Source: a phage
DNA length: 64,000 bases
Strand: one strand, 5' to 3'
Assembly (NCBI GenBank): GCA_012178725.1
Contig: GCA_012178725.1_3030.1
Shown here in pieces: positions 35,059 to 39,791 of the stretch. The notes beneath the pieces are model-generated. The model did no database searches. It was given only the letters and a program-made list of their open reading frames with translations, and was not told the DNA's origin. Numbering within the stretch: the stretch's first letter is position 1; each line of letters starts with the position of its first letter. A program made the position numbers and the translations under genes.

Positions 35059-35062
35059 CAAT

Positions 35063-35080
35063 GGGGACCTTTCGGTCCCC
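35063..35080. terminator. Intrinsic terminator ggggacc-tttc-ggtcccc plus T-rich tract after gene 54
   Basis: Perfect 7-bp stem followed by atatttttattt. Confidence 0.7.
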
Positions 35081-35086
35081 ATATTT

Positions 35087-35377
35087 TTATTTACGGAATG
35101 AAATGAAAGCAGAAACTGAAGCAACTAAACTGTCTTCAATATAAACTTCAATTTTTACCGGAGCTTCTGACTCAAATTTACCTGTTACTACACCCTGAAA
35201 AATACTTTCAGTTTGTTCTGGCTTTGAAAAATTTTCAGAAGGAAAAATTCCGAACTTTTTATCTGTTCCAAAAATTTTAATAAATTCATCGTAAACTGCT
35301 TCATTAAAAGCATTATCAGCAGGAATAACGCCTTCAACTACAAGTTCTTGACCTAAAAAGCGCAAAGAAGATTTCAT
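35087..35377 (-). CDS. Hypothetical protein (alt.-3 position)
   Basis: 96 aa ORF with GAGGAA Shine-Dalgarno and its own early promoter. Confidence 0.6.
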   Translation of the reverse strand: MKSSLRFLGQELVVEGVIPADNAFNEAVYDEFIKIFGTDKKFGIFPSENFSKPEQTESIFQGVVTGKFESEAPVKIEVYIEDSLVASVSAFISFRK

Positions 35378-35404: not shown

Positions 35405-35440
35405 GACTACTATAACACAACATAAGGGACTTGTAAACTA
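35405..35440 (-). promoter_or_regulatory. Early promoter GTTTAC-N18-TGtTATAGT (T4 early class)
   Basis: -35 GTTTAC at 35433-35438 and extended -10 at 35409-35417 on the minus strand. Confidence 0.6.
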
Positions 35441-37495
35441 CATTTTGAACTTTTTAGACATTCCGTTGATGTTAACCAAAGAAGCCAAGATTTGAGAAAC
35501 TTCGTTTTCCTCTTCTTTTGATTCTTCTACAAGAAATTGATTAAATCCAGCCATTGGACGAACTTCACCAGTTTCCATTAAATGGTCGCCATCATATACC
35601 GATTCCTCTAATTGTTCAGAAGGAGGAACGATTGTACCTTCGATTAGATACTTGTTATAAGCAGTTTCTTTCATAAAGTACGTACTTACTTTATTAATCT
35701 TCAGTAAAATTCCACGCGGTAGAATAACTTCAGCTTCTGATGGAAATCCTGATAAATGACCTGGAACGATAACTTTGATTCGCTCAGCTCCTTTAATTAC
35801 CATACCCACGCTAGTTTCAGCATCTTCATTAGCATATGTAGAATGACTACCCATATGCATCAAATCTTCTGCGTCAACTGAACCTTCTCCTTCACCAGAA
35901 AATACTGCGCCGGAATCATCTAGAGCCATATAGTTTTTACCATGCTCACCGAAGATATTTGGTTTAAGAGATGTGGATACGAAGTTCTTGAAATAGAACA
36001 TTTTGTTTTCAATGTTATGACGCAAAGTTTTAAAGGTAACTTCTTGTCCGCGATAAAGCGTAGTTCCTGGAGGAAGAACTGAACCTTTAGCGAATGCAGA
36101 ATCCAACGTCTCGATGTGCTTAATAGCTCGTTCCATATATTCTTCACGGGTAGAATCTGGTTTACCCAAAAGGAACGAGTTCATTTCAACATATGAATCT
36201 GCACAATAATCTTCAATTACATCAGATTCGGCCTGAGTCAGTCCTTTTGGAGTTACTTCAGTGCTTGCGTATTCATATGCCTGGGCAGCAGATTCATTAA
36301 TCAATTTATAAATGCCATTCATGACAAATTGAATAATAGCTGTCTTTTCATCTGGCGTAGCTTTAGAACCTTTAACTAAATCATTAATAATTTTCTTAAT
36401 AACATCAAAGCTATTAGAAATATTAATGTCAGCAAGATCGCTTAAAATTTTATCAGTTTTATAATCAAAGAATTCTTTATTCTTTAAATATTCTTGAGAA
36501 CCTTGATATGTTATATCGCTCTGCAACTTGATAGATGGATCACGTAAACGTGCGTGGGCCAATGCAATATGATTTCGGAAGTTTTCTAGTTCATAATCGC
36601 TAGATTTAAAACGAGAAGCACTTCTCATACCACCGATAGCTCCTTTGCTGAAGTTTGAACCAATCTGGATAACGCCAGAGTTCATCGGACCTTCTGCTTT
36701 ATATACCGGAACTTTAGATTCAAACTCTTGATATTTCTTTGCAGCGAAGCTATCACCCTGAAGTGAAGCATCGACAGTAGAATATTGAGCTTGTGCTGCT
36801 AATCGACGACTAATTTTAGTTTTTTGAATAACAGCTTGATCCGTGCGCTTATCATTTTCTAAAGCAATAGAAGCAGCAACAGCGACAGCTTTAGGAACAG
36901 CATTACCTGTTTTAACATCTACATAAACATCACCGACCTTTGATTCAACTTTTGTGAATAACTCAGTTGAAATAGGAGGTACACCTGGAATGTCTTCTAA
37001 ATTGGCATTTTTACGGTAAACCATAATATATGCATATTTCTTATCATAGTCCCAGATTTCCTTTAAAAGAACATATCGACCTGCTCCTTTAGTACGTACT
37101 AAACGGTCAGCAATAACTTGCATTTGACGAGCAGCGCCATTTGTTTTACTCTTTAGTACACGGAATAAGCACGCGTCAATTTTATACTGCTTCATTGTTT
37201 GAAGAGCAGTATCAAAAACAGCATTAATGACGCCAATTGGATTTCCACCCAAGTTTCTAAGCTTAACCAGTGATAATTTCTCGTTGACACCTATCATTAC
37301 GATATGCATCATTTTATCGCCTGGCTTAACGTTTTTATTTGTATCACCACCAGAGGTGTATGTACAAAATCTAAATCCAGGAAGCACGCTTTCTTCGCCG
37401 GCTTGAATAGCAAAAATTTGTGGTATTTTATGCTTAGGATTTAAGTTAACAACCGGCGCCGAAGCGCCGTCAAATAATTCTGTAATAAGTTCCAT
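35438..37495 (-). CDS. Alt-like ADP-ribosyltransferase paralog (distal copy)
   Basis: 685 aa; MELITELFD N-terminus; conserved YRGQ and FYFKNFVSTSL ART-like motifs; C-terminal VYDGDHLMETGE shared with the adjacent Alt. Confidence 0.85.
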   Translation of the reverse strand: MELITELFDGASAPVVNLNPKHKIPQIFAIQAGEESVLPGFRFCTYTSGGDTNKNVKPGDKMMHIVMIGVNEKLSLVKLRNLGGNPIGVINAVFDTALQTMKQYKIDACLFRVLKSKTNGAARQMQVIADRLVRTKGAGRYVLLKEIWDYDKKYAYIMVYRKNANLEDIPGVPPISTELFTKVESKVGDVYVDVKTGNAVPKAVAVAASIALENDKRTDQAVIQKTKISRRLAAQAQYSTVDASLQGDSFAAKKYQEFESKVPVYKAEGPMNSGVIQIGSNFSKGAIGGMRSASRFKSSDYELENFRNHIALAHARLRDPSIKLQSDITYQGSQEYLKNKEFFDYKTDKILSDLADINISNSFDVIKKIINDLVKGSKATPDEKTAIIQFVMNGIYKLINESAAQAYEYASTEVTPKGLTQAESDVIEDYCADSYVEMNSFLLGKPDSTREEYMERAIKHIETLDSAFAKGSVLPPGTTLYRGQEVTFKTLRHNIENKMFYFKNFVSTSLKPNIFGEHGKNYMALDDSGAVFSGEGEGSVDAEDLMHMGSHSTYANEDAETSVGMVIKGAERIKVIVPGHLSGFPSEAEVILPRGILLKINKVSTYFMKETAYNKYLIEGTIVPPSEQLEESVYDGDHLMETGEVRPMAGFNQFLVEESKEEENEVSQILASLVNINGMSKKFKM

Positions 37496-37498
37496 GAT

Positions 37499-39550
37499 TT
37501 ATCCTTGAACGAACTTGTAAGGCATGTTTGCAATATCTATGCAAGACGCAATAATTCCAAGAGATGATTCTACTTTCTGTTTAACATTTGATGAAACAAA
37601 TGATGCAAAGTCAACTCTATCTTCTATATCACCTGTCATTGTAACCAATTCACCAGTTTCCATTAAATGGTCTCCGTCATAGATTACCGATTCGGTGAGT
37701 TCTTCTGTGGTCATAACTTCAGCTTGAATAAGCTTGTTGTTAGTTTTAACTGTTCCATCATTGTAAGATGCATCGGTTATTTTATTAACTTTGACCATTA
37801 ATCCACGTGGCAAAATGACTTCCATTTCATTTGAAGGCGCTAAACTTCCACCGGGTAAAACAACATTGACCTTATCAGCCCCAGTAATAACCCATCCAAT
37901 TCCGACTAAATTATCGCTAGAATTAACAAGCCCTTCATCATTTTTATCGATAGAAATGTTTAGACGCTTTTCATCTGGTAAAACACCAATAGCTGAATCA
38001 GTCATCCAAGTACCAAAAATGTTTGGATATAATGATGTTGATACAAAATTTCTAAAATAAAAAACTCGATTTTTTACCAATGTTTCATATATTGAAGGTA
38101 ACATTCGCTGTGAACGATATAAAGTAATACCCTTTGGCAATCGATCACCATTTTTAAAGGCTGAATCTAAATTATCGATGGCTTGTTCTATTTCAGGTGC
38201 TGTTAAAATACTTGTACGCTCATCTGGATTATATAATCCCAAAAGAGCATTATTCATGTCTACATATCCTGAACCTACATATTCACGAATTCCGCGTTTT
38301 TGCGCTGGTGTGTATTTAGATGAATCTTTATTTTCGACTATAGAATGCAATGACCATCCAACAGTAAGAGCATATCCACGTAATTCTCTTCGAATAATCT
38401 TTGTTTTTATTGCATTCCAAGAATTTTGCACTAACTCATTATTCGCAGCGTCTTGATTTAAATGCGAATGCTTGTTAATATTTCTTTCTAACCAAGCACC
38501 TTTATATTTTTCTAAAGTATCATCGACTATAGAAGCAATAGTTTCTAAAGTTTTTATTGAAGTAATAGATTCTTTTCGTAATCTTTCTAAAGCTTTATTT
38601 TTTATTTCTGTATTAACATCAGTTTCTTTATCTTCAGGAATTATAGAAGCTTCTCTGAATGCCATTCCAGCTGTAACACTATTAAGAGCATTCTCTAATG
38701 CAAATCCTGAAGTAGAAATAACAGTTAATTCATTAGCATCAGAAATTAAAGGAGCGTCAGCAGGTTTATTTAATTCTGCTGCTGAAGCCTCAAATTTTTG
38801 AAACATCGGTGTTTCAAATCTAGAAGATTCCAATGACTGACTTTGTGCAATTGCTCTACGTGAAATTTTAACTTTAACGATTACAGCTTGGTCAGAACGT
38901 TTATCATTTTCTTGTGCAATAGATGCTGCAATTGCCTCATTTTTAGTTACTTGAGCTCCAGTATCTTTATTGATATAAACATCGCCGACTTTCGATTCAA
39001 CTTTAGTAAAGAGCTCGGTACTAATTTCCGGAACTCCTGGAATGTCTTCTAGTGATACATTTTTGCGATGTATAAGAATATATGCATACTTTTTATCATA
39101 ATCCCAGAGTTCCTTAAGAAGGACGTATCTGCCACCTGAACGACTACGGATAAGTCTATCAGCAATAACTTGAATTTGTCGAGCTTGGCCAGCAGTTTTA
39201 GACTTAAGAATACGAAGCATACAAGCATCAATTTTATACTGACGCATTGTTTGCATTGCAACAGTAAAAACTGAATTGATATAATTAATTGGGCTTGGAC
39301 CAAGACCTTTTAATTTAGCAATTGAACCTTTAGCAGTTAATGTAAAAGGAACAATATGCATCATTTTATCGCCCATTTTTAAATCACGATTAGTATCACC
39401 TCCAGATGTATAGGTACATAAACGAAAGCCTGGTTGTTCAATTGCATCATCAACATGAACTGAAAAAATTTGTGGTATTTTCTTCTTTGGATTTAAGTTT
39501 GTAATCGGAAGAGTAGTATCTTCGTCAAATAATTCTGTAATGAGTTCCAT
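37499..39550 (-). CDS. alt: Alt ADP-ribosyltransferase (head-packaged; modifies host RNA polymerase)
   Basis: About 683 aa from MELITELFDEDTTLPITNLNPKKK; YRSQ and FYFRNFVSTSL motifs; late promoter upstream. Confidence 0.9.
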   Translation of the reverse strand: MELITELFDEDTTLPITNLNPKKKIPQIFSVHVDDAIEQPGFRLCTYTSGGDTNRDLKMGDKMMHIVPFTLTAKGSIAKLKGLGPSPINYINSVFTVAMQTMRQYKIDACMLRILKSKTAGQARQIQVIADRLIRSRSGGRYVLLKELWDYDKKYAYILIHRKNVSLEDIPGVPEISTELFTKVESKVGDVYINKDTGAQVTKNEAIAASIAQENDKRSDQAVIVKVKISRRAIAQSQSLESSRFETPMFQKFEASAAELNKPADAPLISDANELTVISTSGFALENALNSVTAGMAFREASIIPEDKETDVNTEIKNKALERLRKESITSIKTLETIASIVDDTLEKYKGAWLERNINKHSHLNQDAANNELVQNSWNAIKTKIIRRELRGYALTVGWSLHSIVENKDSSKYTPAQKRGIREYVGSGYVDMNNALLGLYNPDERTSILTAPEIEQAIDNLDSAFKNGDRLPKGITLYRSQRMLPSIYETLVKNRVFYFRNFVSTSLYPNIFGTWMTDSAIGVLPDEKRLNISIDKNDEGLVNSSDNLVGIGWVITGADKVNVVLPGGSLAPSNEMEVILPRGLMVKVNKITDASYNDGTVKTNNKLIQAEVMTTEELTESVIYDGDHLMETGELVTMTGDIEDRVDFASFVSSNVKQKVESSLGIIASCIDIANMPYKFVQG

Positions 39551-39573
39551 CATATCCTCTCTAGTGTTTATTC

Positions 39574-39581
39574 TATTTATA
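39574..39581 (-). promoter_or_regulatory. Late promoter core TATAAATA upstream of alt
   Basis: Exact motif on the minus strand, preceded by a GC hairpin at about 39585-39600. Confidence 0.55.
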
Positions 39582-39602
39582 AAATTAAAGGCCCGAAGGC
39601 CT

Positions 39603-39791
39603 TTAATAATCTATTGGTAAGAGAGTACGATATATTTCAAACTTTGGACCTTTTTCATAGGCATCAAAAGTTTCTGTGAATTTATTATAAGCATATGCAT
39701 CTATAAATTCAATCATGATTTGTGATACAGAAGTAGAAACATCTCCACCTTCTTTTTGAGCCACGACAATTGTTTCTAAGTAAGCTTTCAT
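39603..39791 (-). CDS. Hypothetical small protein (alt.1 position)
   Basis: 62 aa ORF coupled to the ligase stop. Confidence 0.5.
   Translation of the reverse strand: MKAYLETIVVAQKEGGDVSTSVSQIMIEFIDAYAYNKFTETFDAYEKGPKFEIYRTLLPIDY

Follow-up and report, generated by a model that had tools for sequence, protein, structure and literature searches.

The alt-alt2 locus of a T-even phage and its second, putatively head-packaged ADP-ribosyltransferase

When a T-even phage carries two full-length Alt genes side by side, does it carry one effector twice or two different effectors? We examined this question in a 64,000-nucleotide (nt) stretch of phage DNA (GCA_012178725.1_3030.1; hereafter the window), where the listing of open reading frames (ORFs) shows, on the minus strand, two full-length Alt-family genes in tandem, head to tail. 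Of these, the proximal one is orthologous to T4 alt. The distal gene, alt2, is under strong purifying selection, and the tree of its ADP-ribosyltransferase (ART) domain places it apart from alt. We consider it likely that the locus is the T-even alt-alt2 pair with alt2 as an ancient paralogue, and that the two products would be made, packaged, injected and directed at host proteins in the manner proposed below.

The two genes and their products

The pair and its translation signals are as follows.

39550..37499, minus strand: proximal gene alt (T4-type allele), 683 amino acids (aa), 76.0-kDa precursor
37495..35438, minus strand: distal gene alt2, 685 aa, 76.0-kDa precursor
39555..39560, minus strand: AGAGGA Shine-Dalgarno sequence of the proximal gene, 4 nt before the second ATG and 1 nt before the first
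37502..37506, minus strand: AAGGA Shine-Dalgarno sequence of the distal gene, within the last alt codons and 6 nt before the ATG

The two proteins are paralogues, as BLASTP aligned them over the full length at 41% identity (E = 8e-159) and MAFFT gave 45.8% identity over aligned columns. A preliminary description of this DNA had reported two tandem Alt ART paralogues here, leaving the strand unstated, and had judged by eye that the N-terminal 230 or so residues were two-thirds identical; the measured value is 66.9% over 235 aa (67-69% across N-domain comparisons). The central region, which it had called strongly diverged, is 13-29% identical by alignment, and the ART domains are 38% identical. 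The ART-type and C-terminal motifs that it had noticed were found in both proteins (LYR[SG]Q, FYF[RK]NFVSTSL, E[MA]EVILPRG and YDGDHLMETGE). The junction was likewise as described, with a 3-nt gap and an AAGGA site inside the 3' end of the proximal gene (37506..37502): the alt stop codon TAA (37501..37499) is followed by the spacer ATC (37498..37496) and the alt2 ATG at 37495. This junction is the same in AR1 and T6, and the 3-nt layout is also seen in Dhakavirus dhaeg.

The longest proximal ORF (39553..37499, 684 aa) begins at the first ATG of an ATGATG sequence and reads MMELITE. The likely start is instead the second ATG at 39550, which gives 683 aa beginning with MELITE as in T4, since it is favored by the spacing of the Shine-Dalgarno sequence, by the T4 annotation and by the numbering of the mapped ITE-6 cleavage. 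The ATGATG (39548-39553, minus strand) is read from its first ATG in some records, such as AR1, which annotate the 684-aa version.

The proximal protein shares 96.9% aa identity with T4 Alt (gpAlt, NP_049811), the NAD+:arginine ADP-ribosyltransferase that T4 packages in its head and injects, and its gene is the T4 alt orthologue. It matches PF03496 (E = 4e-34; 118.1 bits against a cut-off of 23.4) and phrog_802 over its full length, and its catalytic residues are R479, S504 (STS) and E575-M-E577. The pair lies between gene 30/alt.1 and alt.-3/gene 54, as does alt in T4, with the same promoter block and with gp48, gp54, alt.-3 (DUF5498), alt.1 and the DNA ligase gp30 as neighbors. The locus is thus the T4 alt locus.

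The distal protein has 45.8% aa identity to T4 Alt. It scores 71.9 bits for PF03496 (same cut-off, 23.4) and matches phrog_802, 'Alt-like RNA polymerase ADP-ribosyltransferase', along residues 1-685 (E = 1.8e-256); its homologues carry PF03496 and PF26846, and no NCBIfam family matches either protein. Four parts can be distinguished: a conserved N-domain (1-~235), a hypervariable helical region (~240-420), the ART domain (~421-625) and a C-terminal propeptide (632-685). It resembles T4 Alt in length, in PHROG assignment, in its N-domain (67-69% identity), in the R/STS/ExE residues and in the ITE-6 and L-x-E motifs. It differs in overall identity (41-46%), in its ART domain (38%) and centre (13-29%), and in belonging to a separate ART lineage.

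The catalytic residues of Alt2 are R482, S507-T-S509 and E587-A-E589. We aligned 61 family members drawn from a search of 1.84 billion representative proteins; the search gave only 112 clusters, which indicates that the Alt family is narrow. All 61 share the catalytic Arg, the leading Ser of STS and the two Glu of ExE. Conservation in this alignment is 0.46-0.63 at positions 1-240, drops to 0.10-0.23 at 241-420 and takes intermediate values across the ART domain; the tail scores 0.49. An AlphaFold2 model of Alt2 (predicted local distance difference test, pLDDT, 82.8; predicted template modelling score 0.76) comprises an N-domain of alpha/beta type (1-~235), a region made up wholly of helices (~240-470) and the ART domain. 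In a Foldseek search, the ART domain of this predicted structure matched Vis (4xzj), C3bot, VIP2 (1qs1), Certhrax and CDTa with E values of 8e-7 to 4e-4 and a probability of 1.00, and the TM-score on target was 0.57-0.66 for single-domain targets. A PDB sequence search with the distal protein gave no match at E <= 1, and no solved Alt structure was among the PDB sequence and structure matches. By profile, catalytic motifs and predicted fold, Alt2 is a mono-ADP-ribosyltransferase of the R-S-E clade. The distal copy therefore looks functional and is predicted to be an active enzyme.

Age, selection and loss of alt2

Among seven Tequatrovirus genomes, the ratio of nonsynonymous to synonymous divergence (dN/dS) of the distal gene is 0.03-0.07 at dS of 0.11-0.39, which demonstrates strong purifying selection on alt2. 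This ratio also ruled out the possibility that alt2 is a pseudogene. In the comparison of alt with alt2, synonymous sites are saturated along the whole length (proportion of synonymous differences, pS, 0.53-0.86), and the corresponding nonsynonymous value, pN, is ~0.2 in the N-terminal third. Since the saturation extends over the entire length, the duplication is old and the N-terminal likeness reflects constraint. Recent gene conversion was considered as the origin of the conserved N-terminus and was ruled out by the pS of 0.53-0.86 throughout.

Tandem or degenerate Alt copies are found in other genera as well. Dhakavirus dhaeg has a tandem pair of 686 and 707 aa with a 3-nt spacer, Moonvirus CF1 a pair whose distal copy is frameshifted, Biquartavirus UP87 a pair of 639 and 640 aa, and Krischvirus PHB13 an alt with a truncated second copy; Mosigvirus MM02 and Gelderlandvirus Melville have one alt each. 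In UP87, an Aeromonas phage, a GGGCCTTCGGGCCC hairpin (locus L015, 3468-3498) and no 3-nt spacer lies between the copies, and this pair may not be co-transcribed. Nolan et al. (2006) had described ORFs next to alt as paralogous alt duplications, T4 alt.-1/alt.-2 included, and had reported a full-length alt duplicate in Aeromonas phage 44RR (PMC1524935).

We built neighbor-joining trees of the separate domains with 200 bootstraps, bearing in mind that the 14 sequences are a small sample and the method is distance-based. In the ART tree, the distal copies from Tequatrovirus, Dhakavirus and Moonvirus form one group with 100% bootstrap, and the proximal copies group with the single Mosigvirus copy, again with 100%. 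The distal gene of the window is placed by this tree in the Alt2 lineage and not with proximal Alt. The N-domain tree groups the copies of one genus instead, with 94% for Tequatrovirus and 100% for the Dhakavirus pair plus the Mosigvirus copy. The simplest reading, which we offer as a lead rather than a result, is that two ancient effector lineages sit on a packaging module that tracks the genome. The N-domain trees suggest older homogenisation within genera; homogenisation of this kind in the past, or co-evolution with the head, could account for the tracking.

The pair has been seen before. The novelty that the preliminary description had implied does not hold: an intact pair is the majority state in Tequatrovirus, and numerous records already annotate both genes as alt. 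A megablast search with the locus matched 530 phage records, 392 of which cover at least 80% of the query. The alt2 interior is present in 402 records at 90-99% nt identity, and an Alt2 protein of at least 95% aa identity in 397, including T6, PP01, AR1, RB7 and RB33. The Alt2 of the window is 100% identical in aa sequence to that of vB_EcoM-CHD94UKE2 and 99.1% to that of T6 (YP_010067344); its dN to AR1 BAI83209 is 0.0056 (~99% aa identity). Roughly four fifths of sequenced Tequatroviruses have an intact alt2, whose loss has occurred on more than one occasion.

T4 itself is among the losers. That T4 has a single alt, as the preliminary description stated, is borne out by comparison with the T4 locus, which has no intact second copy. 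In reference T4, alt is followed by the small ORFs alt.-1 and alt.-2 (NP_049810, NP_049809), which are annotated as an old duplication of the first part of alt. Aligned to the window, this remnant matches nt 1-339 of alt2 at high nt identity, save for one nt missing from an A-run at nt 160, and is joined straight to the last 20 nt of alt2 and the downstream sequence with its promoter. The missing 1,699 nt span approximately codons 114-679. The junction lies within a 9-nt near-repeat, whose N-terminal copy reads CTAAAGAGT and whose copy close to the C-terminal end reads CTAAAAAGT. The profiles of alt.-1 and alt.-2 (phrog_23015 and phrog_15247) score 138 and 129 bits on the distal protein, about twice the 78 and 70 bits on the proximal one. 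Since both the alignment and these scores point to alt2, we conclude from the sequences that T4 alt.-1/alt.-2 is an internally deleted, frameshifted Alt2 and not a partial duplication.

The T4-type junction is present in 91 records, including the natural isolates HY03, SG1, slur03, RB55 and RB59. Phage sutha (PV245934; locus L008, 4900-5200) has an independent alt2 deletion with the junction GTTCAA|TGACTGG, which leaves a 38-aa ORF. Alt-family genes decay repeatedly beyond these cases: the CF1 distal copy (locus L013, 3501-5623) and the single Melville alt (locus L010, 3992-6099) are split by frameshifts, and the PHB13 second copy (locus L011, 6053-6877) is truncated to 274 aa. The remnants and frameshifts in T4, sutha, CF1 and PHB13 could be taken to mean that the distal ORF of the window is likewise a non-functional or decaying duplicate, still open by chance. 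We regard this as very improbable. The gene is intact at 685 aa in ~400 records with all catalytic and processing residues kept, purifying selection over dS of up to 0.39 effectively refutes decay, and insertions in the gene have a fitness effect in phage Bas37.

The Bas37 data are given in the tables of the HIDEN-SEQ preprint (10.1101/2025.11.20.689424), which list bas37_0032 as 'ADP-ribosyltransferase Alt2' and bas37_0033 as 'Alt'. The former is 2,058 nt long, on the minus strand, between alt.-3 and alt; we equated it with the distal gene by name, position and length. According to these tables, Alt2 is classed as 'Intermediate', with 116 of 164 TA sites hit (71%) and a mean count of 44.5 on K-12, and Alt as 'Non-essential', with 164 of 179 sites hit (92%) and a mean count of 203.6. 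They list no extra effect of Alt2 on strain CFT073, and the main text does not discuss Alt2.

The proximal gene also varies. Tequatrovirus alt occurs as two allele types, a T4-type of 682-684 aa (T4, AR1, JoYop and the window, 37499-39550) and a T6-type of 697 aa (T6, locus L003, 904-2997; WL-3, P922, PP01, sutha and SP1). Residues 1-230 do not differ between the two types; identity falls to 14-40% in the centre, is 60-77% for the ART domain and reaches ~90% in the tail, and dN between the types is ~0.20. In the ART tree, the T6-type joins the Dhakavirus proximal Alt with 100% bootstrap. SP1 has a T6-type alt but a T4-type alt2 remnant, which indicates that alleles of alt and alt2 recombine. 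The Bas37 Alt is T6-type as judged by its length. According to the preprint, T4 Alt helps to evade Mokosh type I, and the Bas37 Alt allele is no substitute (10.1101/2025.11.20.689424).

Proposed late expression, packaging and targets

The signals that bound the pair, and the gene downstream, are listed below.

39581..39574, minus strand: TATAAATA, T4-type late promoter of the alt-alt2 pair, positioned as upstream of T4 alt
39587..39604, minus strand: stem-loop AAAGGCC-UUCG-GGCCUUU followed by AAUUUU, directly upstream of the late promoter
35409..35437, minus strand: sigma-70/T4-early-like promoter TTTACA-N17-TATAGT with an upstream TG (10/12 matches, TG-extended)
35087-35377, minus strand: alt.-3 (DUF5498), downstream of alt2 and behind the early-like promoter

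A late promoter upstream of the proximal copy had been proposed in the preliminary description, and the TATAAATA at 39581..39574 agrees with T4 in position and flanks; it stands at the same position in all Tequatrovirus loci compared. It is the sole minus-strand copy from 28.8 kb to 45.3 kb, and a scan inside the pair found no internal TATAAATA on that strand. A terminator scan found no terminator-like site between alt and alt2. Upstream, the UUCG-tetraloop hairpin at 39587..39604 folds at -15.2 kcal/mol (z = -3.5 against shuffles) and is identical in sequence in T4, T6, AR1 and others. The consensus terminator scan did not flag this hairpin, which was folded separately; it is likely an intrinsic terminator that ends early transcripts from gene 30/alt.1. 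The early-like promoter at 35409..35437 abuts the alt2 stop codon and bounds the late unit downstream. Since T4 alt is a late gene by RNA-seq and proteomics (PMC9697503), we infer from these signals that alt and alt2 form one late transcription unit and that the distal gene is late as well.

The packaging signals were examined by reference to T4 Alt, which the prohead protease gp21 cuts after ITE-6 and LTE-619, as determined by mass spectrometry (PMC5694885). Loss of 63 C-terminal residues at the second cut yields the 68.2-kDa form (PMC5694885), of which there are ~40 copies per head (PMC5694885; PMC9026906). In the window, the proximal protein has ITE-6 and LTE-620, and its predicted mature form, residues 7-620, has a computed mass of 68.4 kDa that matches the published value. 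The distal protein shares ITE-6, and its counterpart of LTE-620 is LEE-631, immediately ahead of SVYDGDHLMETGE. Its predicted mature form is residues 7-631 (69.2 kDa), with a C-terminal propeptide of 54 residues. Among the 61 aligned members, the N-terminal [L/I]-x-E motif (residues 4-6) has E6 in 59 and L/I at P3 in 55, and the C-terminal L-x-E motif has E631 in 60 and L/I at 629 in 54. Both predicted sites fall in low-pLDDT segments of the Alt2 model, which are presumably flexible. These observations suggest that Alt2 is cleaved by gp21 and packaged in the head. The predicted mature forms of Alt (68.4 kDa) and Alt2 (69.2 kDa) are less than 1 kDa apart and would co-migrate on sodium dodecyl sulfate-polyacrylamide gel electrophoresis, which may be the reason that classical gels of T-even head proteins would miss a second Alt.

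We propose the following mechanism. One transcript over both genes would start late in infection from the single TATAAATA promoter that follows the alt.1 terminator hairpin, with Alt2 translated from its own AAGGA site, its start codon lying 3 nt past the alt stop. Both 76-kDa precursors would enter the prohead core by means of the shared N-domain and propeptide. There gp21 would trim six N-terminal residues (after ITE) and the C-terminal propeptide (after LTE in Alt and LEE in Alt2), to leave proteins of ~68.4 and 69.2 kDa in the head, a step that is shown for T4 Alt and extended here to Alt2. Both would then be injected with the DNA and, during the first minutes, would carry out NAD+-dependent arginine mono-ADP-ribosylation of host proteins. 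Alt2 would be directed by its hypervariable helical region and its diverged ART domain to targets that differ from those of Alt, so that the two would be complementary effectors of host takeover or anti-defence and not redundant copies. Late expression, packaging and a different target had been suggested in the preliminary description; the gp21 motifs, the catalytic residues and the purifying selection are consistent with that suggestion, which is still only an inference.

The case for different targets is drawn from the ART domains being 38% and the centres 13-29% identical, from the two ART lineages being separated at 100% bootstrap, and from the preprint data on Mokosh type I, against which not even two Alt alleles of proximal type are interchangeable. 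We explored the alternative that Alt2 is a redundant dosage copy, packaged and injected with the same targets (RNA polymerase alpha Arg265 and others), which would simply increase the amount of ART delivered. The architecture, catalytic residues and processing motifs common to both proteins would fit such a copy, as would the fact that T4 and 90 other records do without alt2 and that T4 Alt has many targets (PMC5512222). A dosage duplicate would not, however, be expected to keep an ART lineage separate across Tequatrovirus, Dhakavirus and Moonvirus (100%). The two ART domains are only 38% identical, and the centres are essentially unalignable. The synonymous saturation, moreover, indicates that the effector half has not been homogenised, and Alt2 and Alt insertions behave differently in the Bas37 tables. 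We therefore consider a dosage role unlikely.

It is less likely still that Alt2 is made late but is not injected, and that it either acts in the producing cell or has a structural or assembly role in the prohead core to which ART activity is secondary. An assembly role could account for the cost of Alt2 insertions even on K-12 in the Bas37 tables, and T4 alt mutants do alter the amount of DNA packaged (PMC3012670); nor did we find virion proteomics of Alt2 in the literature. Against such a role, both gp21 motifs and the N-domain shared with the packaged Alt are conserved, the invariant catalytic residues argue for enzymatic activity as the selected function, and the natural deletion alleles are too common for alt2 to be required in assembly.

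We thus return to Alt2 as a second injected ART with host targets of its own, perhaps in anti-defence like T4 Alt against Mokosh type I, and to the Alt family as a modular delivery system. Taken jointly, these form a tentative reading that we judge slightly less probable than its opposite. Under it, a genus-specific packaging N-domain and cleavable propeptides would be kept constant, and even homogenised between paralogues, while the centre and the ART 'warhead' would be ancient exchangeable lineages (T4-type proximal, T6-type proximal and Alt2). Several observations count against the mechanism proposed above. The alt2 gene is dispensable in nature, as the 91 T4-type deletions, the sutha deletion and the CF1 frameshift attest. 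Different targets are plausible on the ground of divergence alone. The depletion of Bas37 Alt2 insertions, as tabulated, could reflect toxic truncated products or polar effects instead of loss of function. The TATAAATA octamer is statistically not rare in the AT-rich window, with 16 found versus 9.4 expected. Finally, our literature search returned no paper on gp21 processing, virion proteomics or enzyme activity of Alt2, and a study of injected internal proteins (PMC12373910) does not treat Alt.

Neighboring genes, related systems and meaning

The genes on either side of the pair yielded additional observations. The early-like promoter at 35409..35437 probably drives alt.-3; T4 still has it, as its deletion leaves the final 20 nt of alt2 in place. 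Extensions at the C-terminus of Alt.-3 enable T4 to evade the CmdTAC defence (PMC11618068), and the preprint tables list the Bas37 alt.-3 orthologue as conditionally needed on E. coli CFT073 (log2 fold change -2.70, adjusted p 0.02; 10.1101/2025.11.20.689424). Gene 54 and alt.-3 converge, and the GC-rich hairpin of 9 bp that separates them (35061-35082, both strands) has a terminator score; a T-rich tail follows the plus-strand copy only. On the other side, alt.1 (39603-39791, minus strand, 62 aa) matches the Pfam family PF24647, 'Phage blade protein' (E = 7.5e-29). Its orthologue is labelled 'siderophore-interacting protein' in the T6 RefSeq record, which looks like an annotation-transfer error.

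The alt-alt2 pair is already known as the common T-even state; it is publicly annotated, and the second gene has been named Alt2. Its named members (Bas37 bas37_0032, T6 YP_010067344, AR1 BAI83209 and JK08 alt_2) lie at the same position, at 2,058 nt, and the records compared share 95-100% aa identity; the distal gene of the window is a member with no material difference. The preliminary description had allowed that the arrangement might already be characterised. This is so for its annotation and name, but our literature search found no Alt2 biochemistry and no paper on Alt2 targets, activity or presence in virions. What we add is the exact nature of the T4 remnant, the constraint on Alt2 with its packaging and catalysis signals, and the modular pattern of divergence.

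Other ARTs are related more distantly. T4 ModA and ModB are proteins of ~200 aa that are expressed before the late phase and are not packaged, and they have no N-domain, central region or gp21 propeptides. Alt2 nonetheless shares with these two the R-S-E ART clade (PMC5512222). The C3 exoenzyme, VIP2, Vis, Certhrax and CDTa resemble Alt2 in predicted catalytic fold and in the R-S-ExE motifs, but they are 14-20% identical to it and are secreted bacterial toxins without a phage packaging module.

Knowledge of injected ARTs comes almost entirely from T4, which belongs to the minority without Alt2. Absent from T4 is thus a conserved, strongly constrained and probably injected enzyme that about four fifths of Tequatrovirus isolates, many of them used in phage therapy, possess. 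Since Alt alleles differ against a bacterial defence, Alt2 and the Alt allele types are reasonable candidates for determinants of host range. If the reading proposed here is true, a standard part of the T-even 'first-minute' arsenal would have gone unstudied because T4 lost Alt2 by a 1.7-kb deletion.

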